Part shown: positions 29,365 to 57,055 of the stretch, in pieces
How positions within the stretch are numbered: the first letter of the stretch is position 1
Layout of the letters: every line of letters starts with the position of its first letter
Assembly (NCBI GenBank): GCA_030704615.1
Contig: CM060731.1
Span: 29,326,001 to 29,390,000, forward strand
Length of the DNA: 64,000 nucleotides
Source: Takakia lepidozioides
Lineage: Eukaryota; Plantae; Bryophyta
Direction: 5' to 3'
The notes under the pieces: generated by a model
What the model saw: the letters and a program-made list of their open reading frames with translations, nothing else
Told to the model about the DNA's origin: nothing
The model's database searches: none
Made by a program: the position numbers and the translations under genes

Positions 29365-31850
<2,486 letters not shown>

Positions 31851-34800
31851 GGCTGCTGCTTCCACCAAACCCCAAGCACACCACGATGCAGCGCAAGAAC
31901 GCTGCTCTCTCTCTCTCTCTCTCACTCGCACGCCGCCTCCCTCTCTCTTGACTCTCGCTCTCGCTGCACTGCAATGCAGGGCTGCTTGCGCTTTACCGCG
32001 CTCTTCTCTCGCTCTCTCTCTCTGCGCGCCAATCGTCTCCGTGGATGACTCTCATCCAACTTTTGTAACCCTACCTTTTTCTTCCAATTTTCTAACTCAA
32101 TGTTGACTGTAGATTTAACAACTTTCCGTCCAAATCGGCTGGAATCTGTGGGTTCCCCAGATCCAACCAATGCGGATCTTACACGTGCCACAATGGATGT
32201 CGCTGACCTGAGCACCAGGCTGGTGGAAACTGGAAACCTGGACTGACACTGACAGAGCGTAACTTATAATATTACGAGTCAGCCCTCAAATATTTTATTC
32301 TGACAATTTTAGAACCTCACATGTACTGGGAGATCGAACCCAGGATCGGTTGGAAAATTGTGACAAACATTCTTTCTTCCTCTTGCTTGTTGACCAATGA
32401 CACAGAAACCACCCGCTATTGCGATCTCGTGTTGGCCCAAAAATTGGAAACAAAGAGAACATAAATGAGGGGGGGAAAAGAAAACATATGATGATATATG
32501 ATGTGTATAGGCCCAGTGGCAGCAGTTCCAGCGACAAACTATGGCTGTCCGCAATCTGTTCGGCTCCTCCCCATCGAATGGTCGAATGATTCGATATGGT
32601 GCAATTTTAATAACCCTTTTTTCTTTTTTTTCCCTTTTTTTTAAAGAACAAGGCGTGTAAACTTTAACAGGATTTAACGGGCCTTTTATTTTTTATTTTT
32701 AAAAAGTACAGGGAGCCCCACAAGGGAGAATGCCAAACGGCCGATACGGGTCAGGGAGGCTTTCCATGTGAACCCATTGTATGACATCATCCACGAATGA
32801 GTTTGACATTGGAACACATCTGTTGACTCTTTGCAGGTCTTCCAGCGCAAGTCTCGATTCGGTGGTTTCCGCGTTTCCACCGGATGGACTTCCATGCCAC
32901 CCGCCCTCTCTCTGCATGCTTTTGCACGTATCGGGAAAGAATGGGAATGGGTGCGGAACGGAAATGTCCCGTTTTCCTCCATGTGCGTACATCAGCAAGA
33001 TGGAGAAATGTGTCACATGAAAATTCGCTCTCATTTGTTTTTTTTTTTTTTTTTGCGCAACAGGGGGATCTCATATTTTGTTCTCAAAATATTCCACAGC
33101 ATCTCGTTTTCCCAACTTGAAATTCTTCTCCCTTTCATTGGAAGAATCACAAAAAAGGGAAAAGCGAAACACAAGAGAACGGTGGATCACTCACATTCTT
33201 CACAGTATTATCTTCCCATCTTATATTAGTGTTAGGACCTCTCATATAGGACTTCTCTTGTTTTTTCAGGTCAATATAAATTTGTTTTATTCAATATTTT
33301 GGGTCACTGAGATCCAGAATGTGAAGGTGGCCCAATAATAGGTAAGTGAGCGCCGTCGCAGCAGTATTATTAGGGCTGCGCAACGAGGTACATAAGTGCA
33401 GAGGTAAGGAAGGCATGGCAGATGTGGGTCCAATGATTTTTTCTCTTTAATGAATTAGTGTGACTGCCCACCCAATTTTGTCAGATCAACACCAAACACT
33501 TCCTCCTCACCATTACTATATATTTATATAAATATATATATTTATATTTAGGATATATGTTTGCATAATAATTAGGGTGAGTGTTGCAGGCCTGCAGCGT
33601 CGGTGATGAGAGGGGAAGGCAGGTGATCCAACGGTGGGGCGCCACACAGCCAGGTGCGACAGGTGGCACTACTCTGTACGCCATGAATGTGCGCCGCTCT
33701 ATCACGCCCACTCATTCACCGGTCCATCCTGTTTCTCATCCCTCGGACACAAATTCATCTGTTCTCTTATACTCATCCATCTACAGATTTGATTTTTTCT
33801 AGAGATTCCCTCTATCATTGGCTCTTTGAGGGTTTTATCTTTTCCCTTCCAATTTATAAGAAAATGCTTTGTGGGAAATAGAAAAATATAAAAAGAAAAA
33901 CAGGCCTCTTATTGTTTATTTTTATTTTTATCTTGATTGATTTCTGTTTTTTATTTTTAAGGCCTTTGACGATAGAGGGAACGTGAACGTGAGGTGAACG
34001 TGAACTGAGGGGAGGGTGATAAGTTCGGCCGAGAGTATGCACAAGACACCCTAAATGCTGTCGATTCGTGCATTATGTAGAAATCCTCCTAGAAATTTTC
34101 ATGTTGAGAGGAGAAAATACCTTACACCAAAGACACCTAGGGCCTTACAAAATTCGGAAGATGGCGATTTTTGGGGGGCCATGAAGGGCAGGTTGGTTTT
34201 ATGTACTATGGAATGGCCTGCAACATGCCATTGTGGCAGGTGGTGGCGAGCTGGAGTGCGAGCTGCCGCCGAAACCGCCATAAGGACATGTTGCTACCCA
34301 TTCCATAACGTAAAGGATTGCGTTGCCGCCCTCTCATTGGCTTGCAAGTCCTAATCAGACACATTATGTTTCATAATGTGCTAGTGGGCGTAGAATTCTG
34401 CTTTTTAATCCTCTCCAAATACGCCATACTAGGCAGGCAAAATCCTTTACGAGGGGCTGAATCGTAAAAACTGTGGAAGAGCCTCATGAGCTGCCCTTCC
34501 CCGATAAATAAAAGAGAGGGATGGATTTTGAATTTCCAGCAACATATTCCAAACTCAAAAGCCATATTGGTGGATAGACTAAGCTGCATAATGCAACCCT
34601 ACCTTTAGCGTTTATTGACTCTCTTGTAGAGAGAGACTTTGCGGAGACATGCAAGTCAATGGAGAAAATGTGGTCAAAGGACCTTACACCGTGTCAAGGC
34701 GCTGATTGGTTGTTGTGCTGAGTCATGCTCCCTAGTCCTACCTTCCTCTTATGTTGTGCCAAAGCAAAGGAAAGCAAAGCAAAGCAAAGCAAGAGAGCCA

Positions 34801-37160: not shown

Positions 37161-38156
37161 GCAGCCCCACCACGCAAGATATGCAACCAAGTTGTAACCT
37201 AGTGGTAATGGGCTCATGATACCACTATTGGTATTGGTGTCACAAAGTTGTCCACCTTCCCACTCGAAGGCCGTGGCCCTTCAGGATCAAGTGACACCAT
37301 AATTTACGCTTCCTTGGAGAGGTCTCATATATTATTATTAGGCCAGGCCCCACAGAGGTTGGGTAGCGAGTGAGCATGCTCACGTGAGTACAAGGGCATA
37401 TTTCCCAAATTCCCGGGAAATTTCCACAGGGAAATGAAATTGACGAAATTAACAATTATGCGAAACTAACACATAAAGAACAACTAGCCCCTATACCTGA
37501 TGAACATGTTATCCTATAGACGTGGCTTTTTCTCCATAAGAGGCAGGAGAGTGGGCGGTGAGGCTTCACCTCAACTTTAAATAAATAAGTAAATTAAAAG
37601 TCTCCCATGGATAATTTCACATTGCAAAATTTCGCTTAAGAAGCAATCACATTGTGGCTAAGAGGATGAATAGGTCACTTTTCAAGCCCCCACCCATTCC
37701 TTTTGGACATAGGATTTTTGGGTGATGGGATTTCTCAATACAAAACCCATTGCTTGCTAAGTTTGTGCCCATATCATCAAGTATTTCTCTGTGCGAAATT
37801 CACCGCTGCCTAGTTTGTGCGCATATCACCAAGTAATTCTCAGTGCGAAATTCACCGCTGCTTAGTTTGTGCCCATATCATCAAGTACTTCTCAATGCGA
37901 AATTAACTGCCGCCACTACAGAGGTTTGGGATTTTTGGCTATACTACTGAAGGTTTCGCTTTGCTGAATTGGCATAAATGTATTGTACAAATGCACCAGT
38001 CTTCTATACTCGCTTATGGTTTTATTCCGTTTTGAAAACATATAACTCATATGACCAAGGTTTAAAAACATAAAACTCCCATGACCGTGGGTTGTACTCA
38101 CACGAGCACGAGCGTGCGGACGTGAGCATGCACACGTTGTGCTCGCAGGATACCAA

Positions 38157-38880
38157 TGTCGCGCACCTCACCTCGGTAATTTCCCCTTCATGTCATAGAT
38201 AATCGCTTTGATGCGCGCGCCTAACTCCCAAACTGGCCGTCGGGCCAACTCGGAGCTTCGGCTGCTCACCGGGACATAACGGTCCCCCTTTGCTCCTCCA
38301 CAAGACCCTCGCTCACTTTGGGCCTAGTGTAAATTCCCTTTGGTTGTTGGCAGTCTGGAACAGCTCCCCACACCTTGGTCGTTTTCCGGTTCACAAGCTT
38401 ACTCACTAGTTTTTGGTCACCAACGGGCTTGCACCGTTCTCGGGGTTACTACTCCCTATATATACTTCTGTGACTATCCGCGGGGGTTTCACAAACAACA
38501 CCGTCCTTCTATGGCGAACCACCACGAAGACCCTTGATTCCTAGTGATGAGTCGCGGTGAGTCTTGGCCCACCCACCACGGCCCCAATGGATCGTGATGA
38601 GTCCCAAGACTCCCCACGACTCCTACCACAAGGTCTCCGCCCCATGGTGAGTCCTATGTCACCCCCACTAAGACCCACTAAGCTACCACCACCCCTCGTG
38701 GAACCACCCCCACCGCAACCCGGTGTGCGGGGCTCCACCTAGTGAGCGCCTCCGCCTCCTTGAGTGCCTTGGGCACTCAATGGTGCTTCAGCCCCTATAC
38801 CTATTGTTGCCACTGCCCCCACCATAGAGGCAGCCCCTCTTGTGTCCAGACCCCTGCCCTCAAGGTTAAGGGCCGCGACA
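38157..38880 (-). repeat. 3' LTR of the outer chromovirus
   Basis: Direct repeat of 57056-57781, roughly 5% diverged by eye. Confidence 0.95.
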
Positions 38881-39576
38881 CACTCCCCTACCAACAGGGA
38901 GTCGATATCCTCATCGACTTGTCCATTTTGTAGAAACTAACATCCAAGTTGTGGCGTCCCATGACAAAGAACCAAACCCCCACTTGACTCTACTCTCCAC
39001 TAGCTAGTTTGGCCGACTTCCTCCAAGTCCCGCCCAAGGGTGGAGCCTCTCAAGCTCCACCCAGTGCACTCTTCTTGGCCCACTTCTAGGCCAAGGAACG
39101 ATCCTCCCCGAGGATCGAATCGCCTTACTGCAACAACATTGTTTGCGACCGCTCATGATGGCGCTTTTGGCATCACCTTGAGCAAGGGTTCACCTTGAAC
39201 CCTTTTTTACTAGGAAGATAACCTTGAACCAATCGTGCCCCCCATTCACTACAATTGAGTCCGCCTTGGAATGCTGGCCTGAGGTACCGAAGCCGCACTA
39301 CAACTTCGTCCCGAGGTTACACGATTATAGTACATGAACGAAAGCACGTAGCTTCCGCGTTAGCCTGCACTACAAGATAACCCCCTCGGTAGCGCAGTTA
39401 TAGTACGCGCACACGTCAGGTGCGCACTAACACGTGAACTCCTAAAGAAGGCGCAAATTTCCTTGCCCCTTGGGTGGGAGTCACCAAATTTCGGCACTGC
39501 GCAAATACACGCTTAATCCAATTTACCTCTCCCACTTTTGTAAGCTAGCATGCATTCTACACACTAGCCAACCATA

Positions 39577-40104
39577 TGTCGTGCGCATACATATTGCTAC
39601 ACAACTACATCGCTGTCCAAACCACACCACACATATGTGCACAATAAAGTAGTCTGCCACAATGATAAGAAAACTAGAAAACACACTGCTCACACCAGAA
39701 ACAACATGAATCCATCGCTATCACTCTTTAAAACAGAAGTCGAGCCAGGGGCACCCCAAGCTATGGGGACTCCACCCCACAACAACCTACACTCCCATCA
39801 TAAGCACACTCAAATCTAAACGCATGAAAGAGCTCGGTCGCGCAGGCTCAACTCGAGAGAGATGAGCCGCGCGACTGCCGCTCTCGTGAAGATAAGACGG
39901 ACCAGGTGTCAAACTAAACTTGACACCTGATTTAACACTTGACCTAAATCCAAGTGTTAAATACAAATAACTAGTTTTATTCTAGTTGTTTTCACACTGT
40001 GCTTATTTAACTTGACAGTTGTCGTGCGCATACATATCGCTACACAACTACATCGTTGTCCAAACCACACCACACATATGTGCACAATAAAGTAGTCTGC
40101 CACA
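39577..40104 (-). repeat. Terminal A-B-A' repeat block (85 bp + 355 bp + 85 bp)
   Basis: A and A' differ at 2 sites and B and B' at 3, all transitions. Every unit is TG..CA. Spacers are 'a' (39662) and 'gt' (40018-40019). A PPT-like TAGGGGGGCGAT abuts A' on the minus strand. Confidence 0.95.
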
Positions 40105-40362
40105 ATCGCCCCCCTAGCTGGTGGATAGGTCCCTCTACCTCCAGATAGCTACAAGATGTAATAGCCACAGCCGTACTAAGTCCTCTATCACTGTCCTATT
40201 GTACTCAAACTCTATAGACCAAGGGCCGGGTACAAGAGTAGCCCCATCGTTAGTCGCCGTCTTGCAATCTGTGAACTTGAGCCAAGATCTCGTGTGTTCA
40301 AGGTCTCCTAGTAGCTGGGCCTTGCATTTCTTGTTAGCCTTCCATGGTTGTATCCACTCCCA

Positions 40363-40515
40363 CTATCCAATGCAATGTGGACATAACCAATCCCCATCTG
40401 GAACCATCTCAAGAGGTGGAGTCAAGCATCCCATATGCCAACCTCTAGAGCATCGATCGCACACCAGCATGGTGGCTGCCCCCTTTAGCAAACCCACACA
40501 ACATGCACCTCAAAC
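40363..40515 (-). CDS. PHD finger (C4HC3) at the integrase C-terminus
   Basis: CMLCGFAKG(frameshift in a G run)AATMLVCDRCSRGWHMGCLTPPLEMVPDGDWLCPHCIG*. Confidence 0.9.
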
Positions 40516-40519
40516 CTGC

Positions 40520-43400
40520 AGATACCACTGCCAGGTTTGGGTCAATCCTGCCATCGACATTCGGAAGGTGACATGGCGCACAATTACGCACATGGTCCTT
40601 CCAAGTTATGCCATCCCGACCCTCCAAGACCAAGACGCCTGAGGGCAAGACCTCTCGAACCCTCAAAATAACACGTCCTGCAGTCACATCCAGGGTCGTA
40701 GGAGCAGTCTGCTGCAGATAGACATAATCACCAAGGTTGAATCTCCGAACCCCAGGACGATAGCCCCCACCACGTATGGTAGCATACCTCAACGTATCAC
40801 GGTGTTGTGCAATGGCAAGGTTCTCGAAAGCCATGGGCATGACTCTGTTGAACAACTCTGCACGCTGCTCACATGCACGTGCCCACATGTCCGGATCGTC
40901 AAGGTTAAGAACTGTAGCAGCTTCTCTATGAATGGATGTAGGCAAATCCGGCTCTCGGCCAAAGAGAAGAAAGTATGGTGAGAAGGAGGCAAGTGATGCT
41001 TGCTTGCTGAACCTGTAGCCCATGGCTAACCAGGGTAAACTGAAGGTCCCAATCTCCTAGGTGTCCCTTCTGCAAGCCATACTTGCGCAAACCCCTCTTT
41101 ACTATCTGAACAACTCTCTCTGCCAAGCCATCGGCCTCAGGATGATCCCGAGAAGTGGTGCGGTGGTCTATCAAGGCCTTGTCACACAAAGCCTGAAACT
41201 CCCCCAAGAACTCTCTCCCTTGGTCCGTGAGTACCTCAGCTGGAGCACCGAATCGGCTAAGCACACAATCCAGGAATGCATACGCAGCTCCCTCACTAGC
41301 CTTATCAGGCAATGGAACCAATTCAATCCACTTGGAGAAGTGCTCCACCATCACCAACACGTACTTGTTGTGGCGCATGGTCAGTGGCAACGGCCCTGCG
41401 AAGTCAAGACTCCACCTGTAGCCCAATCCCATGATCGGAAGAGGGTGCAATTGTGGAGTAGGGGCGTTGAATGAAGCACGCACCCTGTCACACACCATGC
41501 ACCTAGCCACAAATTGTTGCACCTCTGTGTGCATACCACGCCACCAATACTGCCTCTGCAGTAGACTATGAGTGCGTCGCACCCCAAAATGCCCCAACTC
41601 CTCATGGGCATGGCGCACTAACCGTCCCGCTGTGTTGGGTGAGGCACAATCCTCACTCGACCATCCTCCCACACTCGGAGCAGGTGTGTCCCCTCCCACC
41701 TGAACCTCTTGGCTTGTTGTAGGATCCGATCCCTCTCCTTGGCAGTCACAGTGGCTGCCGTGTCTCCAGTGCGGAGGTAGTCCAACACAACTGAATCCTC
41801 ATGTATATCTTTGGCGCCACCTTGCTCATTGCTGGCCTCAGGGTCCTCAGACACTTGATCTACAGTCATCCCTGTTGCAGGTCCAACCTGGCCTTCCGCT
41901 GCCAAGATACACAGAAATGCAGATGCATGCCATCCGGGCACCATCTCCTCGTCCGTCTCACCATGCCACCGAGCTCCAGTGTCATCCTGTTGGCTCGTGC
42001 ATGGATTGCGACTCAACCCATATGCATTGCGATTGACCAAACCCGGTCGATGCACCACCTGAAAGTCATACTCTTGAAGGATGAGTGCCCACCGTGCAAG
42101 CTTCCCCGTAAGCTTGTCTGACTCCATCAACCACTTGAGTGGTTGGTGATCCGTGACAAGGGTGAAGAGATTGCCGTATAGATAGCACCTGAAGTGTACC
42201 ACGGCCCACACTGCAGCTAAGCATTCTCCCTCATATGAGCTATACTTAGACTCTGCAGCATTGTTCGAGCGGCTAGCATAAGCCACTACGAACTCTCTTC
42301 CCTCATCATCCACCTGTGTGAGCACCGCTCCAAGCCCCAGCATGCTCCAATCTGTATGCAGCTGAAAAGGACGCCCCCTGATAGGTCGTCTCAAGATGGG
42401 CGCCGAGGTCAACCTCGCCTTGAGCTCTTGAAAAGCTTGTTCTTGCTCATCTTCCCACTGCCACTCCTGGTCCACCTTGGTCAGCTTGGTTAGAGCCTTT
42501 GCAATGGCACTGAATCCCTTAACAAACCGTCTGTAATAGTTTGCTAACCCCATGAAAGCTCAAACTCGGCTCACATCCGTGGGGCGTGGAACCTGTGCAA
42601 TGGACTCTACCTTAGTCTGCTGTACCCCCAATCCTCCAGGATATATCATGTGACCCAGATACTCAATCTGGTTGTGGAAAAACTTGCACTTGCCCGGATG
42701 TAACTTCAATCCGTGCGTCCTTAAACGCTCAAATACCCCTTGAAGGTGTCTCTCATGCTCCTCCACCGTAGCACTAAAGATGATGATGTCATCTATGTAG
42801 CACCGAGCAAACTCCACCCCTGCTAGAATCTGTCCATGACTCTTTGAAACTCAGCGGGAGCGTTTTTAAGCCCAAATGGTAAGAACCGCCACTGGTATAG
42901 GCAATCCTTCCCGTACTCATTGATCCCCCAGAATGCCGTCTTTTGCTTATCCGTCTCCTTGATCGGCAACTGGTGATATCCGGATCGTAAATCCAACGTG
43001 CTAAAGACCTTGGAATGCCCAATGGCATCAAAGATCTCCTCTGGTGTTAGCATGGCATACCTATCGGACTTGGTCTGACGATTTACAGGCCGGTAATCAC
43101 CGCACATACGTCTCTCCGTCCAATTGCCATATACATCCTTCTTAGCTGGCATCACTGTGGCTGAAGCATACTCTCCACCAGAGAGCTCCACCAAACCTGC
43201 CTCCCAGAGATCTTGAGTCCTCATCTGAATCAAAGACCTCTCCATGTCACTGTATCTATAGGGTCTCCGAAAGATTGGCGTGTCAGTGGCCAACTCAATA
43301 CGGATCTCTTGACCCTTCAGTGCTCCCAAGTCCTTCAAACTGAAGGCAAAGCAATTCCTGTAAGCCCTCAGGAACCGCCGTATACGTCGTCTCTCTCCTC
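40520..43400 (-). CDS. Inner element RT, RNase H and DDE integrase (gypsy order), with stops and frameshifts
   Basis: RMCGDYRPVN..FSTLDLRSGYHQ..LPFGLKNAP..CYIDDIIIFS; LHTDWS..YEGECLAAVWAV..LVTDHQPL; HEELGHFG..CMVC; SLDFAGPL..VLTDQGREF..DGLAERVVQ. Confidence 0.93.
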
Positions 43401-43779
43401 CGGTGACAATGGGTCCAATGTCAGGCTCCCAATTGTCCTCCGTAACTGCAACCTTAAGTCCAGTGGGCTTAGAGGTAGAGGACGCGTCCCGTGGTTGCTA
43501 TGCTGCAACCTCTTGAGCAGTACTCCCTTCCCGCTCAGTCAATGACAAGGCCTCATCCTGCCCCATCATCTCATCATTGAGAACCTCCTCATCCCGAGAA
43601 GAATCCCCAACCTCATCCATCACAGCTGCCTTGGCTGCCAACTCCCTCTGAACCTCGAGCACCTCCCACGTGTGCCATGGATGTCTATACCCCGTGGTCC
43701 TCACCAGCTCGCCCCCACTCGCTGCCTGTACCGTCTCGGTAGGCAGAGAGACCGTCAAGGGAAGTGCGCTCCGCACTCT

Positions 43780-44750
43780 ACGTTGCTCAGCCATAGCCAA
43801 GCTGATAATCCAGGTCAAGCAATTGAGATCCATTGCTTGCCCCAACACCTGACGACGTGATGCCTCAGAAAGAGAAGGCACCGCCGTGGTCCCAGTGGAA
43901 AACCCCATAGCCCGCTCTCGCTCGTCGGCATTAGGCTCTACTAACTGTTGCAACTGAGCATCCCACAGGAGGCCAGGTCCACCATCCCGAAAAGCATGGG
44001 ATCCTGGGAAGCTGAGCAGTGTAGGTAATGCTGCTCGTGGTTGACCCACCCTGTTGACCACTGCCAAAGGCGAACGGTCATCGTGTCTCACACGTTGAGA
44101 CTGCCTTCCTGTGTCCAAAATACCATCCACGGTGAGGTGTGTTGGCCGCTGCACCCCATCAAATGCACGCTTGAGCAGTGCGGGTGGCATCAAGTTAGTC
44201 CACCATAGTCGTGGACGATGAGCCCGTGACCCCACTGCAGCTGCATCCAGCAACACTGCTGACCCAAGCCACGACCGGACTTGATGCACACTGGCCATCA
44301 CCCTGGCCCGAGAATCACCCATCAGCGGCACATTCTCCAAGATGTATGCCGGAGATACAGCTTGATGAAGCTGCAAGTGGCGCAAAATCCGCACCATCTC
44401 CCAAAACAAACCCGTCCTCGAGTCTAGCAATCCATTGCCATGCCCGGCTGATGAATGCCCTTGGCAGGGCCAACCTGCCACTACCAGATCAATGGAGCCA
44501 ACCCGCTCCAAATCCTGGCCCCCAGCAACGCAATGTCTGCTGGCAAGGCCTGCTGATATCCACGAACTGCAGACACCGGCAACAACTCAGGGTACTGCTG
44601 CAGCACTGAGCAACATGGCGCAGTGAGACGCGTCGTGCAGTCTCATCCTTCTCCACATACAGGTAACGTCGAACTCGTACACCTGCCTGTAGCACAGCAG
44701 CCAATCCGGTGCTGATCCAGTCAAACAAGTCCAGAAGGCAAATGCCTTCA
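43780..44750 (-). CDS. C5 cytosine DNA methyltransferase domain, DNMT3-like, within the polyprotein (two frameshifts near 44500-44610)
   Basis: Motif I LLDLFDWISTGL; II YLYVE; IV IDLVVAGWPCQG (catalytic PC); VI YILENV; VIII AHRPRLWWTNL; IX ERERAMGF; X RRQVLGQAM, in canonical order. Confidence 0.92.
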
Positions 44751-44911
44751 TCCGGATACTGCCACACAATAGGTGTGGTATCCAATGGTGACAACTGAGG
44801 TGGTCCTGGTGCAATACCCGCACTCTCCTCCTCTCCTGACGGAACAAAAGCCTCTACCCAGGCTTGTTGCACCCGTCGATCAGCAACCTGCTGCAAATCC
44901 TTGCTCGTACC

Positions 44912-47697
44912 CTACAATGGAGTGTGAGCAACCATGGCAGGCAACTCCGCCATACCATGCATGTCATCCTGCTCTGCTGGAGGTGGCACATCCTCTGCAT
45001 GGGCATTGCCTTCCAGCAACTCTCCAGGCCAACTAACTGCAGCTGTAAAGGCGGCTAGTGTTGGCATCTTGCCCCGCTGGGCAGCCGCTATACCCCCAAT
45101 GAATGTCACAGGGAGCTGTGCACGGTGACCATCGCCTGACTGCCATCCAGGCCTATAGGATGCTGACTCCTCCCAAAAGTCCAGGGTGAAGCCCATGGAG
45201 TATAACACTGCCCCACCAACAAGGACATCGTAAGAGACTGCGTCTGTCACAATGGCCTTGGCTCGCATTACTGAGCCATCGATAGGATGATCCAGCTGCA
45301 GTCTAATGGCCAACTGATGCCGTGTCATGCCCTGAGCCTGCTCTGATCCTCCCAGAGATGTCTGTATCTGGAAAGGACAAGGCTCCATATTCGCCTCCAT
45401 GAGGCCCAAACCTGCAATAGCAGCTCTGCCCAACATCAGTGGCTGAGCTCCTGAGTCCAACAAGACCCGCAGTGGCCGGTACTTCTTGCCTGCCAGTCCA
45501 CTCAAAGTGAAAATGCCTCCCTGGTTGTCTAACAAGACAACTCCAGGTGTCACCATGGCGCGCTCAAAGGCTGGCCTAGCTGGCAGCTCCGTCAATCTGG
45601 CAGCTGCAGCTTGCCAGGGCGCTGCCATGGCAGTCTTGACCCTCAAATCTGAGGATCCCTCTGCCACTACACCTTCCACTAACTCCGCAGAAGATGAAGT
45701 GACCTCTCCACTCTCGCAGAGTGTTGCTGCTAATCTGAACACTGCAGCTGGTCTCACTCCCGGCGTCGCAATCATGGTTGCCGAGAACAGTGGGGCTTGA
45801 CACACAGAGGTGGCTGCCCCCAACAACATACCGGCTGCACTAGCCTTGGCAGCAGGTGTCAGTGCTGCACGTGTAGCTCTCCCCAATGGCATAGAAACCT
45901 CCGCCTCGGTAACAATCGGGCGAGAACTAGGTGCCATGGATGGCGTTGACACTGTCTCCGCCAAGGTGAATGACTGAGGCAGCCTCGCTTGACGGCTTGC
46001 CTCCCCACGATGTGGATCCAACTCCACCTCTGCACCTCGTGGCTCAGGAACTCGTGCTGCTCCTCGAGTCACGGCTGCAGCAGACTCCACATGCTCTAGT
46101 GGTAGTGCTGCTTCGCACATGAATCCCATGCCTCCCATATCTCCTCCCTCAGGAGCAGGAGGTGGACCATCCCGCCTGGGAGCCGGTACCGCCTGAGCTA
46201 TAGCCATGGCAGCGAGCCTCTGCTCTAGCTGCTGAAGCCGATTGGCCATGCCTTGGTCAACACCCTGACCTCCGCGTCCTTGGCCATGTGGAGCTTGCCC
46301 TTGGCCTGCACCTCGTGCCCGACCACCTCGTCCTCTTTGGGCTGGTCCACCTCGCCCCCGGCCACCATTGTTCCCTTGGAACTGGCCTGGGCGCAACTCA
46401 GGATGCAAGTCATAACACTGGGCATCTACATGCCCATACTTGCCACAATGCCCACACTGCAACTGTGCAGGCTGTGCTTGTGCCGGCCTTCTGCCATTCT
46501 CTGGGCAATCTCTTTTGACATGGGGTCCTCCACATGTCCAACATATCACCCCTGGTTGCTGTTGGCCTGCAAAAGATGCCACGGGCCTCTGCACCTGAGG
46601 TCCCCTGTAAGCTCCATGGAACTTGGGCTGGGCAACCTTGCCCCCCTGACCACGCTGTTGGGCAGTCCCTTGTGCCTGTGGGCTGACAGCTGTGCCCCGT
46701 GCAGGCATGTCCTTGCCAAATCCAATTGTAACAACTCGCTCCTCCACCATGTTGAGCTCAATCCGCTCAGCCAGCAGAAACACATCTGCTAATGTGGGTT
46801 GGGCTGCTTGTAACAGGGTTGCATCTCGCACCCTTCTCTTGAGCTCCTTGTCCAGAATTCCATACCAAAACTGGATTGCCTGAGCTTCAGTAACCCTTGG
46901 GTCACACTTATCAAGCGCCTCATACGAGTGTACGCCTCTCGCAGGCTCTCACTGGGTTTGCGCTGGAAGTCTTGCAAACTTCGCAGCTTCTCTGTCCGTA
47001 CACCTTGGTAGTTCCTCCGCAACTCCTGGAAGAACTCCACCACCGGGTTGAATCTAGGCACATGTGTTGTAGTCGTGGCAGGAGGAGTAGTAGCACCTTT
47101 TGAACTGGTACCACCTGCAGAAGTACCAGCACTACTTGTTCCACTACTAGTGCTGGCAGTGGGAGATATTGGTACTGATGCAGCTACTGGTCGCGTCGTG
47201 CCTCGAGTAATGGAGACGTAGTCAGGTGACCAATACATCCTCCACTCCTCAATCTCTGCTTCATGTCCTCGCCTGAACTCGTGGTAATCGTCCATAGGCG
47301 GGCCTTCCAAATGCTGGAACAGTCCCTTCCACGCCATGAATGGGGTGAATAGCTGTGGATTGCGCATCTGCTGCAAATCACACCAGCTGTCGAACTCCTG
47401 GATAAAGTCATCCAACTCGATTGTGCCCACAGCTCCAGAGTACCTACGAGGCCCCTTGGTAGCTCCATACATCTCCTCCATGTCGTCCCACAACAATGGC
47501 GAATGAAAGTGCACACCTGTTGATGAAGCCTCCGAGTCTGTGTCTGACTCTACAGTAATTGAGGGTGGCGGTGAAGGTGGTCTGAACCGAATACCTCGTC
47601 TTGTGAACCCACTCTCACTGTTACTGCCTGTAGCCGTACTCCCCTCAAAACCCTTGGGTAACTCCGTAATGACACTCACAATGTGCACCTCCTCCAC
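44912..47697 (-). CDS. Inner element Gag (two zinc knuckles) and aspartic protease; one frameshift near 46830
   Basis: FQRKPSESLREAYTRM (gag core), CWTCGGPHVKRDC, CGHCGKYGHVDAQC, VLLDSGAQPL, YDVLVG. Confidence 0.88.
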
Positions 47698-50339
47698 GTG
47701 ACACTGTAAGGCTCTAGTACTAATCTAATAGTGACACGGGTGGGCACCTGTTGCAGTTTAAGGGTCATATCCCAATGGCTCAGGGCACCTGCACCTGCAT
47801 CCACCGCAAGAACTCATATGGTTGGCTGGTCATCAACCCAGCCTCACCATAGAAGAAACACTGGTGGTCTTGCTGGTCATCACTCCAGCCTCACCACCGA
47901 CAGCATACTCTAGGATTGACCGGTGATCAAATCCGGCCTAATCCCTATGAAAGCAAGCGCCCACACAAAACCAACATGGCGCACAGTCAAGCATGCAGGT
48001 GTTGGGGGGGATCCAAACACAAGAAATCAAAACATCAACACCCATACACCAAAATCCAGCTGCAATGCTGATCCTGCAGAATATCCCAGCCCAAAACCCC
48101 GGACTGACTGGCCTCCACCAAGAGAGGCTTTGGCAACTACGAGTACAAGGTAATGAAAATAGTACAGAGATGGAGGGGAAGAATAGAAGCCCGCCCAAGC
48201 AAGATCTAATCCTGATCTATGCTATCAACTTCCAGACTTCTCTCAAAGTGCCTCGCTCTGCGTGATGGTAAGGTGTAGGAGGTATATCTATGTCCAGAAA
48301 CCTGCCACTAACTTGTCCCAAGCTACAGTAGCTCGCTCTAACCAACCCTCCTCCTCTTTCTGCCAGGTAGAGACAAAGCAATACTCCCCTATCTCCCGCT
48401 CACTGAACACTAAAGAAAACAAGGTAGGGTGTCTGATAGTCTCTCAACTCGAAAGCTTTGAGACGGTTGCGGGTGTCCTCATTGCGAATGACTGCATCTC
48501 CTTCACGCACACAAACATGTCATTGCTGATGAACCCCGCTCGTGGTTGCCTTGTGCAGAGCGTATCCGGCTGCAACCATGTCTGATTGCACAAACTTGTG
48601 TAGCTCCTGCTCCTCTGCTCCAGTACACCACGGCCTTGTGGCTGAACACCTTGGTCCCCGGGGCTGTCTTTGGCTGTGTTCCAAGCCTAGCTTTCACCCA
48701 CTTTGGTGTTTCACCTACAGCTGCAGAACTGCTGGCTCCAACAGAGTTCTGACTGTCCAAGGCGATATTGAGGCCCTCAACGCCAACTACAGCAGTTTAT
48801 TGTCCACTACTAATGCCTGACTCCCAGTATGCAATCAACTCGTCCAACTGTTCTCCACTCAAATCAGTTTGAGTTCCTTGGGAAACATAAATCTTGTCCC
48901 CTTTGGTGCACAGGCTAAGAGAAGAGACCTGCCCTTCAATCACGTCCTCATTTCCCCCAGCCATACAAGGAGTACATCCCCAGATTTATCTCTCATGTAG
49001 ACCAGAACAGGTTCTAGAAACAGGATTGTGGATCTTTCATGGCACACTCACACTCTAAAAATTCCATAGATTTTTAGCAGAGTCCAAAAAACAGAAACCA
49101 AGTCTAAATAGGTAGATTTCCCCTTTCTGCAGCTATCCCCTCAAAAACTGAGTCAAACGGAGCCCATTTGACAAAGATATGACCAACCAGGCTCTTTAAA
49201 CATAACATTTATTTTTATTTTTATTTTTTTAATAAGACAAAACAAATACAAAGAAAACTCTATTGTCTTGGTTCCCTGTTCCCTGGTTCCCTGTTCCTGT
49301 ATATGTGCCCAAAGTTTCAAATTGGTACCAGCGGCTCTTAGGTATTGTTCATATTCGCCTGGCAGCCGTCGTCTCTGTGGCGAACGCAGCCCGCCAGTCT
49401 CCCGCAATCCTGTCAGCTCAACTTGAGCAACACAGATCGTTCTCGTGCACCATGATAGCTCCAAAACTATGGGCGGCCCAGGAAGACGACGTCTCCTCAC
49501 TTAATGAGAACGCTGAGTGCAAAAGGACAATGGTATAAACGGACAGCTGAAAGCGGCTCACAGTAAGGCCGGGGAGGCTATCTTTTGGCAAAGCAATTCA
49601 AACGTTCATGCACAAACTAGTACCAACCCTGGACGAGTTCCCTGGACGCGTCTAGACTCCCACCAAGCATGCTTGCCCTGCTGGAAAGGGCGGACCCGAC
49701 CCATTCACTTCTTCAAGCACAGAAAGAGAAGGAAAATCCCTTGGTGACGAAGGACTTGGTGCTTGAGGTGCCTGAAAACTGCTTCGATGGGCCTCCCTCA
49801 ACATTGGTTTGAGCCTCTTCCTTCTCAGCTGCTGCCTGAGTCTGCAAATGCTGCACGCAGCATGCTCCTAACTCCCACCTTCAATTCTTAGCTTGCATGT
49901 CTTACTTTGTCAGTCTCTTGCTTGTTGCTCCCACTGCTGCTAGGCTGGTGATGCATATCTGCAGAGGACCAGCAGCTCCCTCCCATGTGTGGAGCACCCC
50001 TTCTTGAGTCCATCCCTCATCCATTGTACAGTTCTGATGTCTATATAAGAGGTGGGAAGAGATATGGCTGATTGTTCAGGGATAAACAATGTTGCAATGA
50101 GGCAGCTGCAAGCTGCCAAATCAAAGACTTAGATGGCCATCAGCTCCTTTGGTTGTGCCCTGTTCTTTCATGCTCAAGCTCTCTCTGAATGGTCTCTCCT
50201 GAGCTGACAGTGCCCAACCTGTCGACTTCTCCACATTCTCTTTCACATCTCTACCGTCAGGTTGCTCTACCGAGACATCGCCGCTCCCGCTTCTTCCTGT
50301 CTTAACAACGTCCTCTGCCTCTTCAACCTTCAGTTCTCT

Positions 50340-50625
50340 TCTTCTCTCATGAGAGGTTTGCAATCCAGTGGGTTCTCCTAAATATTTTGCAACTTCCCAT
50401 TGTCATTTCTGCTGGGAACTGCACCATTCTCAGAGATCCATTTGTCTCGAATGCTTTCAAGTAGAGCTCGGCTGGACGGTTCTCATTCTGCACCTTCACA
50501 TACCAGCATTGTAGCGGCTTGCGTGCAAAGCGTAGCCTCATACTCTCATAAGCCTGTCTTGAGACACCAACGTAATATAGAATCTTTTCCTCATAAAAAA
50601 TGGCATACACACTTGCCTTCGAGTC
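50340..50625 (-). pseudogene. Captured fragment of a plastid/cyanobacterial-type GIY-YIG domain gene
   Basis: VYAIFYEEKILYYVGVSRQAYESMRLRFARKPLQCWYVKVQ..RP(frameshift)RALLESIRDKWISENGAVP..ENPLDCKPLM. It resembles cyanobacterial GIY-YIG proteins and the GRXS16 N-terminal domain (recognised from memory). Confidence 0.7.
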
Positions 50626-50820
50626 AGGTTTGCTGCAATCTGCAATCGTACCTCCTCAGTCAAGAATGCTACGAACTCGAGATCACTCAAAATAAAGAAA
50701 GCCACCCACTTGTGCCTGTCGCCTTCGCAGTGCATCTTGCTTCCGCCTATATTCTTCTTGTGCCTGGAATGTGAGCTGCCGTGTTTGTCTTGGTGTTCAT
50801 CGGCTGCTGCCAGTTTTTTA

Positions 50821-51043
50821 CTTCCACGTCCTCCATTATCCGAATTTGTTGTCTGCTTTCCCATCCAGATCCATGTACTCCGCAGCTTTCATCTTCTCCT
50901 TGATTTGCCTTGTGTACTCCAAAGCCTTTGGTGACGGTAGCTTCAGCGACTGCAACAACAGTGACGGCTCTAGCATCGTCATCCTCCAGGCGTTTCAGGG
51001 CACGCTGAATCTTGTGGTCACATTCAATGATATGCTTCTCAAA
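50821..51043 (-). pseudogene. LUC7: Captured exon fragment of a LUC7-family (U1 snRNP) gene
   Basis: FEKHIIECDHKIQRALKRLEDDDARAVTVVAVAE..(frameshift)LEYTRQIKEKMKAAEYMDLDGKADNK matches the plant LUC7 coiled-coil as I recall it (ECDRKI.RAL.RL.EEDAKA..IKEKMKEAD..DLEGK). It is preceded by an AG. Confidence 0.75.
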
Positions 51044-51132
51044 CTAAGCACTACTTACACACAAATAATCTTGCAAGTGCTAACCCTCAACTCCTACCTT
51101 GCACTCACAGGTAAGAGAGCATCTCTCTCGAG

Positions 51133-51487
51133 TGATAAGAAAACTAGAAAACACACTGCTCACACCAGAAACAACATGAATCCATCGCTATTACTCTTTA
51201 AAACAGAAGTCGAGCCAGGGGCACCCCAAGCTATGGGGACTCCACCCCACAACAACCTACACCCCCATCATAAGCACACTCAAATCTAAACGCATGAAGG
51301 AGCTCGGTCGCGCAGGCTCAACTCGAGAGAGATGAGCCGCGCGACTGCCGCTCTCGTGAAGATAAGACGGACCAGGTGTCAAACTAAACTTGACACCTGA
51401 TTTAACACTTGACCTAAATCCAAGTGTTAAATACAAATAACTAGTTTTATTCTAGTTGTTTTCACACTGTGCTTATTTAACTTGACA
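51133..51487 (-). repeat. 5' terminal repeat B'
   Basis: Near-identical to 39663-40017. Confidence 0.95.
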
Positions 51488-51654
51488 CATACCGTGCATC
51501 ACCATTCCAAACAAAATAGGAAGCACAACATTTGGAAACCATTTCATTTATAAACAAAATTTGTACAACACAAGTTTTTGCAATCGGATTCCTGAGCTAG
51601 CTAAGCCGGAGTAAGCATGCATTTCCTCCCCCACGATCTAAGGTTGATGTCCCC

Positions 51655-54600
51655 CTAAACACTTCTTCCACTTTTGAGGTCGCCTTTCGAAGTTGCAACC
51701 GCCTCAGATGCATTTCCCATCTCTGAGGCACCCACCCAAATTACCTCCACTTGATCATAGCCCTTCCATTTTACGAGATACTCCGTTTCTCGATTCTTGA
51801 ACTTCCTCGACTTAAGCACTGTCTCCACCTCGTACTCAGGTTCATTTTCATGATCCAAAAGCACAGGTGGCGGACGCAACACTTGATGCCGATTCGGACG
51901 CGCCTCATCTTTGAAGTAAGGTTTAAAAAAGGAAACGTGGAATACCGGATGCACCTTGTTGTTTGCTGGCAGCTCCAAATTCATACACATCCTCATTCAT
52001 AACCTTCCGGATGCGAAAGGGCCTTGCATACGGAGGTACGAACTTCAGACTCACTTCCGGAGGTAGTCGAAAATTCTTGATGTTCAACCAGACCTCCGTG
52101 CCTGCCTCAAACTTAACTTCCCTCCGTTTTCGATTTGCATGTCGTTCATACCGTTTCCTAGCTTTGGCAATGTTGTACTTTGCGAGCTCCAACAAACGCT
52201 CGCGTTCTTCCAGTACCGCTAGTGCTGCCGGTTCCTCAACGTCCTGGGCGGCCCAACTCGTCGGCACCAGAGCGCATCCAAGTGCTCTACCCAGTTTGAC
52301 TAGTCTGCCGACACATAATTATGCAAAATTTGCTTCACCACGGCATTCACTCTTTCCGTTTGGCCGTCCGTTGTAGGTCGGAAGACGGTGCTCGTCCCCA
52401 TTTTATTCCAAAGTGCCCTCCAAAATTTATTTGTAAACTTTGGGTTGCGGTCTGAGACAATATCCTTAGGGAGTCCATGATGCTTGAAGACGTGGGCGAA
52501 GTAAAATCGCCCCGTCTCTTGCGCCGTTACCGTCTCCTTGGTGGGAATGAAATGGCGCATTTTACTGAACCCACTACAACAGATCGCGGTAGTTATGACT
52601 GCCAAACCGTGGTAGTCATGGTTTTCATAACTTTGACCATGACTGCACCATGTTTTTATATGAAATTGACTTCCCGCAGTCGTTCATACGACTGTAGTCA
52701 TATGAACGACTATCTAAATAGTCGTCTGTATGACTACATGGCTCCGGAATGGGCGGAAGGCTGGTCAACGGCAATTGACCAAATTTAGCTCACCATTCAT
52801 AGTCATTTCCATGACTACAGTGTACATAGATGAGGTTACATGGTCATGATGACTACTGAGGATTTTGTAATTTGGTGTGTTTAATACAATTAAAACACCA
52901 TATGATCATATGAATGACTAATGGGTGTATTGGTTAACAGGTAGTGAACTATAACCCTTATAGTAAAGAGGTTGCAGGTTCAAACTCCTCTAAGTACAAT
53001 CAAATGGATAAGATGGCCCTAGGGTTAGTAGGCGAGCTAGGGATAGCACGTGGTATCCTAGATGGATTGCCACGTGGTTTTTTCATTATTATAAAATGCA
53101 TTACGCCACGTGGCACAATGCGGTGGCATTTGACATATGTTTTTATTTTTTTTATTTTTTTATTTAATCTAATTTTTTAAATCAATTGTGCCTCGCCTGC
53201 GCGGCAGAGTGAGTGGCGGAGTGTGGCGGGCTGCAGTATGGTATATATGACTGCAGTGAGAGATATCACTTGGTTCATATGACTGTAGTTATCCGGACCG
53301 TACCATCATGTACTCATTGTATTGACTTGGTTTGCACGACTTACAGTCATAGAAGTCATATGTACCGTTTATGACTGCAGAATAGTTATATATATAGTCA
53401 TAAATACCGCGATATGTTGTAGTGACCTATCCACCACCACCATGATTGCATCAAATCATTTTGACAGCGGCAAAGAAGTCATGACATCCATCGAGACACT
53501 TTCCCAATACCCATCTGGAATCGACAAGGGTTGTAACAGCCCCGCTTGCTTTTTGTACTCGCTCCGATTTTGTTGGCATGTGGTGCATGTCTTGATATAC
53601 TCCTCGGCCTCCTTCCTCAGTTTGGGCCATAAATACTCTTTCTTCAAGAGTGCCGCGGTGCGCTTGGCTTCGCCGTGGCCCGCAAGCGGGCCATCGTGGC
53701 ATTCTTTCAAGAGACTATCTCTGATCCTTCCCTTCAGCACATAAAGACGCTTTTGCTTGTACCGGAGCAGTCCATTGTGTAAGCGGAACTGCGATTTAAC
53801 CCCCAACCTCAAGTCCTGCATCACGGACTTTGCCATCTCATCCTTCCGGTAAGCCTTCCGGATTTTCCTTCGGAGCGTTGTTTTGTCCCTGGACACTAAC
53901 ATGAGCTGCTATTTTCTACTTAAAGCATCGGCCACCATATTGTCCCGTCCCAGTTTGTACTGGATATCCACGTCGAACACTGCCAAAGTGTCTTGTCACC
54001 TAAGGTGTTTGGGGGACAACTTAGGCTGCGTGGCAAAATACTTCACCGTGACATTGTCTATGAACACCTTCACCGGGTTGGAACCAACATAGTGGCGCCA
54101 AAGCTCAAGGCAATGCACCACCGCCTTCAGTTTTTTTCTCGTGCGCATGCCACCGTCGCTCCACTTCATTCAGTTTCTTACTTTCGTAAGCCACTGGACG
54201 TCCATCCTGCATGAGCACATCCCCAATTGCGAAGTCTGATGCATCTGTATGAATCTCAAATGGACGGTCGAACTCCGGGATTTTCAGGACTAGAGCTTCC
54301 GCCATCCGCTGCTTCAACTCGGCAAAAGCTTGGCCACAAAAGGTGTTCCATACCCATATCTTGGACTTACACAGAAGGTCTGACAACGGCCCCGCGATCT
54401 TGGCGAAATTTCACAGATACTTTCGGTAAATAAGAAGCGAGTCCTAGGAATGATCACACTCCCGGGACCGAAGTCGGAGGCTCCCAGTCCAAGATTGCCA
54501 TCACCTTTTTGTCATCCATTTTGATCCCATCCTATGTAATCACATAACCTAGGAACTCCACTTTTGTGACCCCGAATTCGCACTTTGAAGCTTTGGCATA

Positions 54601-57000
54601 CAACTTCTCTTCCCGGGAACACCCTTTTTAGGTGCTCCAGGTGCTCTTTCTTTGTTTTCGAGTACCCCAGGATGTCGTCGATGTACACGATCACAAAGTC
54701 ATCCAACCACTCCTGGAAAAGGTTGTTCATTAGCGTGCTAAAGGTCGTGGATGTGTTGGTGAGCCCAAAATGCATCACCAAAAAGATATGATGCACGATC
54801 ACACGATCATATTAACCATATCTTGTCGTGCACGCGGTCTTTTCCTCATCTCTTTCCGCCACTCGGATTTGATGGTAACCTGAGCACAAATCGATCCGGC
54901 TGAAATACTTTGCTCCTGCCAACCGATCGAAGAGGTCGTCGATCCTTGGAAAAGGGTACCGATTTTTTATAGTCACCTTATTCAGAGCCCTGTAATCGAC
55001 ACACATCCGCATCGTCCCATCTTTTTTGTCTGCGAATAGCACCGGGGTTCCGTAAGGTGACTTACTCGGCCGGATGTACCCCTTTGATATTAGATCGTTG
55101 AGTTGGGCATTCAGCTCGACCAACTCTCTGTGGCTCAACCGGTACGACACGTTGGCAGGCGGCTCCGATCCCAGTATCACCTCTATTTTGTGGTCAACTC
55201 CTCTTTGCAGTGGCAAGCCGCTTGGTAAATCCTCCGGCATCACATCCTGGTATTTCTCCAGGATCCCCTTGATCCAATTTGGGCTAGGCTCCCTATCGAC
55301 TTCTTCTTCCACTTGTCTTACGTAAAGCAAAAACTGGGGCTCGTGTGGCTCCTCCACTGCCTACTCATTTGCTGTCAACATGTTTAATCGCGAGTCCCAC
55401 TCGGTTGGGCGTTTCCGATACCTGTAAAACTTCGCCACCATTCCCACACGGTAGCGTGATTATTCTCTTGCGGCCATCTATGACCGCTCCGGATTTGCTC
55501 AAAAATGTCATCCCCAAAATGAGATCCACTCCATCGATATCGCAAATGGTGAAGTTTTCACGTCCCTCCCAACCCCCGAGATGAAGAGGAACATTGAACA
55601 CCAACCTCGTCGCCAGTTGTGGTTAACTTTTGGCATAACGCACTTCAATAGAGGCCCCCACATCAAGACGGAAGCCCCAGCTTCCTGCCGTTTGACGGGG
55701 TAGGTGGTGTTGTCTATGAAGCGAGTGTACCAACAACGACACGTTAGTTCTGGAAATTATCCCACTTACGAACATTAACTGACTCCCTTTACGCAAGGGG
55801 CCAGTCTCCTGATACAACTCACAAGCGTAGTTGTCTACCTTGCAAGTCTTGGCGACTACTGCCTCTACCAAGCGACTGATGGAATCTTCAGACAGCTCCG
55901 TGGTCGCCTGATCATGTTCAATTGTCGGGGTTTCGCGCACTTCTTGGCCATGTGCCCAGACTCCCCGCAATTAAAGCACACTCCATCGAAGGTCACCTTC
56001 TGTCCGCCATAAGCCGCCGCACCTAATTTTCCTTTCGAAGCACCGAGTGCCGCTTTGATGTGTGAATGCCCTCCCTTCGATTTCCATGTGTCATTGTTGC
56101 CACGTGGCCTATCCTACTTTTTTTCTGGTCGGAAGGAGTCACCCTCGGCTCGCCGGGCCTTCTTGTGGTTCAGCTCCGTACGGCCTTGTCTTTCGCCCCT
56201 AGGAACATCCGAGAAACATTCAGCCCTTTCAATTGCCACATTCAAAGTCTTAGGTGGCTTCTCCTCCAACTTCCGCCTGGCCCATGGGGCCAGTCCCGCC
56301 ACAAAGTTGAAGACCATTTCTGGTCCGCCATATCGGCGACTTCGAGCAACAACACATTGAAAGCCTGAACATATCCCCGAATGTCATCTGTTTGCTTCAA
56401 ATTCCTCATTTTGTCTCGGGCGAGCCATGATGCGTTGAGGGGCACAAATTGTCTTTTCATAAGTTCCTTGAACCCACTCCAGCTCAAGGTTTCTGGGTTT
56501 AGACCTTGGTCATGAAGGCGTTTCTGCCACCATTGTTGAGCATAGCCCCTCAAATAGGTGGGAGCCACTTCCACCTGATCCTCGTCACTCAACTTGGTCG
56601 CCCGGAAGTACTGCTCCAGCTCCAAAAACCAGGTGTTGAGTGCCTTCCGATTTCGAATGTCCTCGAAGGTGCCGGGTTCCTTAGGCTTCACCTTAAACTT
56701 TGCCTTAGTGGAAGTGACATTAGCCGCCCTTATCACGTCTTTCAACGTCCCGCCAAACTGCGCCAACAACCCTTCCCAAAAGGCTACTGGCATGGGAGGC
56801 ATCTGTTGGTCTGTCGAAGCCTCCGGGAAGTCCTTGGGCTCCGACTCTGCAGATTCCTCCCGTTCTTGAACGGCCTCGCTTTCAGAAGCATAAATCGCCT
56901 TTTTCAATTGCCGCTTCGGTGACACGTCGCCCCCACCGGGCTCACCAGGATCATCATCTTTCGGGTCGTTCCGTTTTCGCTTTGTCTTGCCCGACCCCAT
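51655..57000 (-). pseudogene. gag-pol of the outer chromovirus (Gag, CCHC knuckle, PR, RT, RNase H, integrase, chromodomain), frameshifted
   Basis: KPKEPGTFE..WFLELEQYF; CFNCGESGHMAKKC; [19 protein letters not shown]; VYIDDIL; HTDASDFAIG; ECHDGPLAGH..CTTCQ; VSDRNPKF; EYEVETVLKSR..EYLVKWKGY (chromodomain, ~51700-51840). Confidence 0.92.
52572..53424. mobile_element. Non-autonomous CACTA element (853 bp) inserted in the chromovirus integrase
   Basis: TIR CACTACAACAGATCGCGGTA / CACTACAACATATCGCGGTA; 3-bp TSD ACC; ATGACT subterminal repeats. Integrase reading resumes on both sides (MVVVD|..FSKMRHFIP). Confidence 0.95.
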
Positions 57001-57041
57001 GATGAGGCCGATCTCAAGGACGATCGCGTACTGAACTCTAA

Positions 57042-57053
57042 GCTCTGATACCA
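57042..57053 (-). promoter_or_regulatory. Primer-binding site for tRNA-iMet
   Basis: TGGTATCAGAGC on the minus strand, 2 nt from the 5' LTR. Confidence 0.95.
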
Positions 57054-57055
57054 AG

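Follow-up and report, generated by a model that had tools for sequence, protein, structure and literature searches.

The subject of this article is a Ty3/Gypsy-type retrotransposon of the bryophyte Takakia lepidozioides with a DNA methyltransferase (DNMT) domain inside its coding region, found on the minus strand of a 64,000-nucleotide stretch of DNA (here called the window; GenBank assembly GCA_030704615.1, contig CM060731.1, positions 29,326,001 to 29,390,000 of the forward strand). The protease (PR) lies 5' of the DNMT, while reverse transcriptase (RT), RNase H (RH), integrase (IN) and a PHD finger lie 3' of it, and the coding parts, with the damage that each has suffered in this copy, are as follows.

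46388..47481, minus strand: Gag with two CCHC-like zinc knuckles; frameshift near 46890
45128..45475, minus strand: aspartic protease (LLDSGA)
44912..44914, minus strand: premature stop in the PR-DNMT linker, private to the window copy
43760..44750, minus strand: DNMT3-like C5 cytosine methyltransferase domain; motif I altered, frameshifts near 44605 and 44520, motifs IV-X open and intact
43492..43500, minus strand: in-frame stop UAG followed by CAA-CCA (CAR-YYA), the end of the first open reading frame (ORF1), in frame with RT; conserved
42050..43497, minus strand: reverse transcriptase with RNase H, broken by a frameshift near 42830 and a premature stop at 42560-42562
40990..41640, minus strand: integrase (H2C2 finger, DDE core); frameshifts near 41630 and 41035
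40363..40520, minus strand: C-terminal PHD finger and stop of the second open reading frame (ORF2); frameshift near 40485

Because of its seven frame switches (near 46890, 44605, 44520, 42830, 41630, 41035 and 40485), two premature stops (at 44914 and 42562) and altered motif I, the window copy is dead as assembled, and it cannot itself carry out the methylation proposed below. Some of the single-base frameshifts may be assembly errors, since a homonucleotide run of two to five bases lies near every one of the seven switches and the terminal repeats, described below, have diverged little (A1 and A2 differ at 3 of 355 positions).

A DNMT3-like enzyme in a retrotransposon

A first-pass annotation of the window, made from its letters, had placed a C5 cytosine methyltransferase between protease and RT, and the profile PF00145 indeed matches the open reading frame at 43498-44586 on the minus strand with 47.9 bits and an E-value of 1.6e-12 (cutoff 22). 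The same annotation had the main motifs present in order with the catalytic PC, which holds for motifs IV (GWPCQ, with PC at 44469-44464), VI (ENV), VIII (AHRPRLWWTNL), IX (ERAMGF) and X (GQAMD), in what I take to be their standard numbering, but not for motif I, which lies in the upstream frame and is changed at 44719/44721. Its likeness to DNMT3 was borne out by both sequence and fold: a relative from Calypogeia, compared with solved structures, matches DNMT3A/B/C first, then DRM, HaeIII, HhaI and DNMT2; an AlphaFold model of the domain from an intact relative, L053 (pLDDT 92.4, pTM 0.90), finds DNMT3A/B/C in all 30 of the PDB matches listed by Foldseek (best E 1.6e-19, TM 0.72); and an Atlas structure search concurs. 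By its motifs and predicted fold, the domain is thus a DNMT3-like C5 methyltransferase, intronless and with unpermuted motif order, carrying an 18-amino-acid insertion relative to DNMT3A and lacking PWWP and ADD targeting modules. The S-adenosylmethionine (SAM)-binding motif, the catalytic cysteine, the ENV glutamate and the motif VIII arginines are conserved across the family, and motif IV reads G[WF][PE]CQ in 68 of 78 domains of the PR-DNMT-RT type (GWPCQ in 54, G[WF]ECQ in 11). The element's PHD finger is most like those of CHD4, PHF21A, KDM5A and ATXR5, a class of PHDs that read unmodified H3K4, as the ADD domain of DNMT3 does.

Two stops of different kinds

The stops that flank the DNMT at 44912 and 43498 had been taken as in frame with protease and RT, respectively, and as the probable decay of one continuous Gag-PR-DNMT-RT-RH-IN-PHD polyprotein. 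Each stop is in the frame assigned to it, although the two frames differ (by the frameshifts near 44605 and 44520), and only the first is a product of decay. At position 44913, sister contigs of sequencing run X1 carry another letter in 633,321 of 634,098 depth units (99.9%), and the residue at this site is a single conserved one in 54 of 58 loci and a stop in one, so the stop at 44912 is private to the window copy. The stop at 43498, on the other hand, is conserved in sister copies: positions 43492-43502 hold zero variants at or above 1% in any of four runs, with more than one million depth in X1, and the neighbouring positions 43503, 43504, 43490 and 43480 vary by 8-19% in that run. The continuous polyprotein must therefore be given up, since in this branch a conserved stop with a readthrough-type context closes ORF1 behind the DNMT.

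The search for intact copies that the first-pass annotation had recommended yielded L053, in which an ORF1 of 1369 amino acids, the junction TAG CAG TTA and an ORF2 of 1047 amino acids follow one another in one frame. L097 and L059 have TAG CAA TCA at this junction and likewise a 1047-amino-acid ORF2, L015 and the window copy have TAG CAA CCA, and UAG-CAR-YYA with both ORFs in one frame is found in the window, L015, L052, L053, L059 and L097. In intact relatives UAG-CARYYA divides a single frame into exactly two ORFs, Gag-PR-DNMT and RT-RH-IN-PHD. The second codon after the stop encodes proline, leucine or serine, yet it is YYA in all of these elements, and because the nucleotides are kept while the amino acid differs, the constraint after the stop acts on nucleotides. 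CARYYA is the tobacco mosaic virus (TMV)-type, or Type I, readthrough signal (PMC4132726), and the conserved stop is probably read through at low frequency.

The pattern extends beyond these few elements. Among 81 loci surveyed, 60 were counted (the other 21, with no RT start within 600 nucleotides, were dropped), and an in-frame stop followed by CARYY stands at 53 of the 60 DNMT-RT junctions, five of them TAG-CARYYA and the remainder with another sixth base (36 after TAG, 12 after TAA); as a measure of chance, CARYYA follows 4 of the 5,569 stop triplets in the window. ORF1 proteins of Marchantia and Calypogeia terminate 75-79 amino acids past the DNMT, matching the place of the conserved stop, and in the DNMT tree 17 of 17 rows ending 60-180 amino acids after the domain sit in one 21-row clade without fused rows (support 92/64, which is modest). 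On the Klebsormidium branch, the unnamed relatives P0058, P0061 and P0062 each have a single called protein that spans DNMT and RT. Gene models from Marchantia and Sphagnum that also join the two were set aside as probable skips of the stop by predicted introns. Near the Klebsormidium elements branch four Gag-PR-DNMT proteins of 1160-1278 amino acids (P0075, P0079, P0082 and P0139) that end 12-13 amino acids after the DNMT, possibly a separate ORF1 boundary.

A stable family in bryophytes

In run X1, which may come from the source sample, 22,342 contigs align to 1.8 kb of the element, so the family is multi-copy; sequencing depth was not taken as copy number. Protein searches returned 90 longer relatives and 257 near-length ones (120 listed), and 2,902 protein clusters at E <=0.001 or 199 at 1e-30. 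Identity to the open part of the window's DNMT is 75% in Calypogeia fissa, 73% in Marchantia polymorpha, 71% in M. paleacea, 69% in Riccia sorocarpa, 56-70% in Sphagnum and 46% in Klebsormidium nitens, and the domain occupies the same polyprotein position in liverworts, mosses and Klebsormidium. No vascular plant is among the listed relatives that bear a species name (most listed rows bear none). The suggestion that a retrotransposon-borne DNMT from a land plant would widen the known range was therefore sound: the land-plant range of this Gypsy-DNMT3 family, with members in Calypogeia, Marchantia, Riccia and Sphagnum, is solid, and the DNMT3-like enzyme is a stable part of it.

The first-pass annotation had asked whether the domain is absent from other copies, evolves neutrally or is a recent one-off capture; it proved to be family-wide, constrained and too widely spread for a recent capture. 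Ten open full-length DNMT copies were compared, the comparisons with the window copy being synonymously saturated, and between subfamilies the NG86 ratio of nonsynonymous to synonymous substitution (dN/dS) is 0.14 (L052/L053), 0.09 (L052/L059) and 0.18 (L008/L015), all Ka/Ks values falling below 0.2; the domain is under purifying selection. Close decayed metagenome copies give about 0.65 for DNMT, and since their RT gives a similar value (0.54), this is decay after insertion. Distances in the RT and DNMT trees are correlated (Spearman 0.68, equalled in 0 of 999 permutations; 58 elements, after dropping two near-duplicates and pairing the DNMT of L071 with the RT of L065), and the DNMT is co-inherited with the RT. 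Among the 15 of 24 joints listed for sister contigs, none that leaves out the domain recurs in a second contig.

In the DNMT tree, from which six long or partial rows were left out and in which 8 of 76 rows of the clade described next were used, the window element and the elements of liverworts and Sphagnum make up a clade of 10 rows (100/99), and the transposon DNMTs group together against prokaryotic and viral outgroups (100/100, with a long-branch warning and with host DNMT3 absent from the tree). These were the sole outgroups, as no host DNMT3, DRM or CMT was among the protein matches listed. The same tree does not recover the Klebsormidium branch as sister. A second architecture, with the DNMT after RNase H or before integrase, appears in 77 of 233 proteins, and in full as RT-RH-DNMT-IN-PHD in 25 (examples are P0063, P0066, L098:3061-9516 and L099:1-9042, with about 75 more proteins); it forms one clade in the DNMT tree (76 rows, support 96; 97/98 with 8 rows), and 38 of 39 such elements group together in the RT tree.

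Transfer to prokaryotes was considered and rejected: of 32 loci in prokaryote genomes 3 are close (L097, L098 and L099), and all are whole retrotransposon contigs in metagenome bins, likely eukaryotic contamination. These eukaryotic-type elements sit in bacterial bins of which two are labelled cyanobacteria and one Minisyncoccia. Viral contigs gave only distant C5 methyltransferases (16 loci, E 3e-13 or weaker).

Ends and surroundings of the element

The whole element and its terminal parts are delimited as follows.

39577..51487, minus strand: whole Ty3/Gypsy-type retrotransposon, 11,911 bp, with TG...CA ends and a 4-bp target duplication
51488-51491 and 39573-39576: the 4-bp target-site duplication that flanks the element
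51133..51487, minus strand: split direct repeat A1 at the 5' end, 355 bp, differing from A2 at 3 positions
47725..51132, minus strand: 5' leader of 3.4 kb with degenerate ORF pieces; no match among the relatives' loci compared
40020..40106, minus strand: split direct repeat B1, 87 bp, differing from B2 at 2 positions
39663..40017, minus strand: split direct repeat A2
39577..39663, minus strand: split direct repeat B2, at the element's 3' end

The terminal order is A1, coding region, B1, A2, B2, and two whole long terminal repeats are not present. Because A1 and A2 differ at 3 of 355 positions and B1 and B2 at 2 of 87, the insertion is young. L065 and L071, which are probably two views of a single locus, share the A1..B1-A2-B2 arrangement and have a similar B end and a 4-bp duplication. 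At the B1/A2 junction (40017-40021, minus strand) a right end CA, two extra bases and a left end TG follow one another, which resembles the junction of circularised or tandem cDNA. Within the leader, a GIY-YIG-like fragment at 50350-50652 (minus strand; Atlas score 0.95, no Pfam match), presumably similar to the N-terminus of plant GRXS16, may have been captured from the host.

A decayed chromodomain Gypsy element adjoins the DNMT element at 51655-57066 (minus strand), and because its repeats at 57047-57781 and 38149-38880 (93.7% alike) enclose the DNMT element, the latter appears nested inside it. The whole nested block is flanked by an 800-bp inverted repeat pair (84%; 37355-38155 and 58508-59303) with internal 52-bp tandem units. 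Host-type genes lie elsewhere in the window at 29704-32051 (minus), 18620-19195 (plus), 596-1057 (minus) and 6182-7294 (minus) and include a peptidase M3 exon, together with what I take to be adenosylhomocysteinase exons and a PI4K-alpha-like exon; a CACTA-type DUF4218 ORF is also present.

What the layout may mean

Everything that I propose beyond the two-ORF layout is inferred, and the proposal is this: that the two ORFs are split by a leaky UAG-CAR-YYA and that the methyltransferase, made and packaged at the level of Gag, methylates the element's own cDNA at CG sites before it is integrated, a reading that I favour tentatively and at somewhat less than even confidence. Most ribosomes would terminate after the DNMT to give Gag-PR-DNMT, and a few would continue into RT-RH-IN-PHD; within the particle the protease would then free DNMT about as abundant as Gag, with cDNA as the DNA at hand, so that a new insertion would arrive already methylated, and the PHD finger would steer the integrase to chromatin with unmodified H3K4. 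Release by the protease and packaging with Gag are likely; that the enzyme acts catalytically on DNA, with the element's own cDNA and CG as its targets, is slightly favoured, CG being the likely context because SymbioDIRS-Dnmt3, a dinoflagellate transposon enzyme, performed de novo CG methylation in yeast (PMC5890265). The ratio of observed to expected CpG at codon boundaries is 0.28-0.30 in the window element, 0.05-0.74 in four relatives and 0.76-1.05 in the adjoining chromovirus without a DNMT, and this depletion is a weak supporting sign.

Several observations weigh against this proposal. The CpG contrast has a single control element behind it, one of the window's host exons is CpG-poor as well (0.31), and L097 is just mildly depleted (0.59-0.74). 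Seven of the 60 junctions depart from the stop-CARYY pattern, and the 59 from metagenomes collapse to only 7 groups at 85% identity, a small independent sample from a handful of lineages. In the largest metagenome family the stop is followed by CAA-CCC, a weaker context, with an in-frame ATG next in 41 of 43 non-redundant copies and TAA in place of TAG in 11 of the 43; the TAA share does not decide between splicing and readthrough, because it is on par with G-to-A rates elsewhere, for example at +31 (9 of 43). A conserved stimulatory RNA structure was looked for 3' of the stop, and none was found. Motif IV has EC and not PC in 32 of 79 domains of the second, RH-DNMT-IN-type clade, and the Klebsormidium enzyme was inactive in yeast, a result that its authors describe as inconclusive (PMC5890265).

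How ORF2 comes to be translated could be explained otherwise, with a genuine stop and the DNMT still at Gag level but ORF2 reached through a shorter mRNA, reinitiation or splicing. The last two letters at the junction are AG, as in a splice acceptor, an in-frame ATG stands two codons past the stop in the main metagenome family, and the sequence flanking the stop of the retrotransposon Tca2 gave no readthrough in yeast by itself (PMC2194720). No ATG occupies that place in the window family, L015, L053, L059 or L097, however, and neither splicing nor reinitiation requires that YYA be kept across three amino acids; one X7 contig, RNA by guess only, also spans the junction unspliced, which is weak evidence. 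I consider this route improbable. A more serious rival, if still an unlikely one, accepts an active and abundant enzyme but has it act in the nucleus, on the insertion site (which the first-pass annotation had allowed as a target beside the cDNA), on existing copies or on host chromatin. Output at Gag level would presumably be in large excess over the one or two cDNAs in a particle, and the resemblance of the integrase PHD to CHD4, PHF21A, KDM5A and ATXR5 suggests a role on the chromatin side, but fusion to Gag by default brings proteins to cytoplasmic particles, as is established for retroelements, and the domain is without PWWP and ADD modules for targeting. The K. nitens methylome, moreover, is land-plant-like although such elements are present there (PMC5890265).

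Alternatively, what preserves the domain may be that it binds or protects nucleic acid or methylates RNA, and not that it deposits 5-methylcytosine in DNA. The lack of methylation by the Klebsormidium enzyme KnitGypsy-Dnmt3 in yeast would fit, as would the 18-amino-acid insertion and a motif IV with EC in domains of both types (PR-DNMT-RT, 11 of 78; RH-DNMT-IN, 32 of 79), and RNA methylation was raised by De Mendoza et al. for other retrotransposon DNMTs (PMC5890265). Yet human DNMT3B failed in the same yeast assay (PMC5890265), the SAM-binding motif, catalytic cysteine, ENV glutamate and motif VIII arginines are all kept, and the fold is that of DNMT3 and not DNMT2, so that I would give this explanation little credence. 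Least credible by far is that a host gene was taken up once and recently and is now decaying neutrally: the broken window copy and the dN/dS of about 0.65 among close decayed copies look like this, but RT decays alike within the family, the values between subfamilies are 0.09-0.18, the domain holds one position in liverworts, mosses and Klebsormidium, and no recurrent joint that skips it was seen among those listed. On the broadest view, which is possible but rather doubtful, one ancient capture of a DNMT3 would have founded a large and mostly undescribed clade of PHD-bearing Gypsy elements that survives in liverworts and mosses; the domain would have moved between two polyprotein positions, and a leaky stop of plant-virus type in the bryophyte branch would have led to a capsid-level enzyme and to copies that integrate CG-methylated.

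If the preferred reading, methylation of cDNA by an enzyme packaged with Gag, is true, each particle is loaded with methyltransferase and new insertions arrive pre-methylated. The known transposons that carry an enzyme for silencing transposons come from hosts that are hard to work with, but this family is also present in Marchantia polymorpha, a genetic model for which methylation mutants exist, so that the reason for carrying such an enzyme becomes testable. The conserved stop provides a quantitative clue, in that selection holds the enzyme on the abundant side of a recoding site. There is also a practical consequence for genome annotation, since some gene models, among them Mp4g09160 and Mp8g17980, are in fact ORF1s of transposons and would raise the apparent number of host DNA methyltransferases.

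Relation to known systems

The closest known system is KnitGypsy-Dnmt3 of Klebsormidium nitens, described as an intronless DNMT3-related domain in a Gypsy element under purifying selection (de Mendoza et al. 2018, PMC5890265); the K. nitens protein with the order PR-DNMT-RT-RH-IN and 46% identity over the domain is, I infer, this element. The two systems share a DNMT3-related, unpermuted and intronless domain between PR and RT, the order PR-RT-RH-IN, a DDE integrase and purifying selection. They differ in that KnitGypsy-Dnmt3 has its DNMT in the Pol ORF, whereas here a conserved UAG-CARYYA parts DNMT from RT, and in that the hosts here include land plants; the main text of that paper mentions neither Marchantia nor readthrough. 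The repeats of the window element and of L065/L071 run A1..B1-A2-B2; for KnitGypsy-Dnmt3 a figure legend speaks of DIRS-like repeats together with Gypsy domains (PMC5890265).

Two other retrotransposon-borne C5 methyltransferases are independent captures: SymbioDIRS-Dnmt3, carried by a DIRS element with a tyrosine recombinase (PMC5890265), and that of the EpiLTRs, which is DNMT4-related with DAM and chromodomain (bioRxiv 10.64898/2026.05.21.726589). Mammalian DNMT3A/B and moss DNMT3 are the best sequence and fold matches and share the unpermuted motif order, whereas the element's domain is about 22% identical (structural alignment), lacks PWWP and ADD, has family-specific insertions and is encoded by a transposon. 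A split terminal repeat is also a feature of REM1, a PHD-bearing Gypsy element of Chlamydomonas.

With Type I readthrough, as described in PMC4132726, the junction shares a single in-frame stop, the CAR-YYA hexamer and the lack of a conserved downstream structure. In-frame stops are known in Tca2, SIRE1 and murine leukaemia virus (MuLV) (PMC2194720), where they come after gag or before env, while the stop discussed here follows a protease and an accessory enzyme. A PHD finger also occurs in the Gypsy polyprotein of Gypsy-7a_cRei from Chlamydomonas, which has no methyltransferase among the listed domains (PMC9940879). Membership in Phygy, a non-chromovirus clade of REXdb described as preferring NCGN targets and as a short element filled by its polyprotein (PMC6317226), does not fit the target duplications TATG and CATA or a leader of 3.4 kb.

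According to one review, land plants such as tracheophytes have no transposons that encode methylases (PMC6338049); liverworts and mosses clearly do have them. In the literature searched (which did not include subscription journals, Repbase or supplementary figures), Gypsy-Dnmt3 is named only by de Mendoza 2018 and by the 2026 preprint, as 'streptophytes (Gypsy-DNMT3)' and, in the preprint text available, with no mention of bryophytes (bioRxiv 10.64898/2026.05.21.726589), a wording behind which a wider known range may stand; no mention was found there of the occurrence in bryophytes, of the leaky stop or of the second clade, in which the DNMT sits between RNase H and integrase. The land-plant Gypsy-DNMT3 elements thus extend a known kind, and the conserved readthrough-type stop is their newest part.

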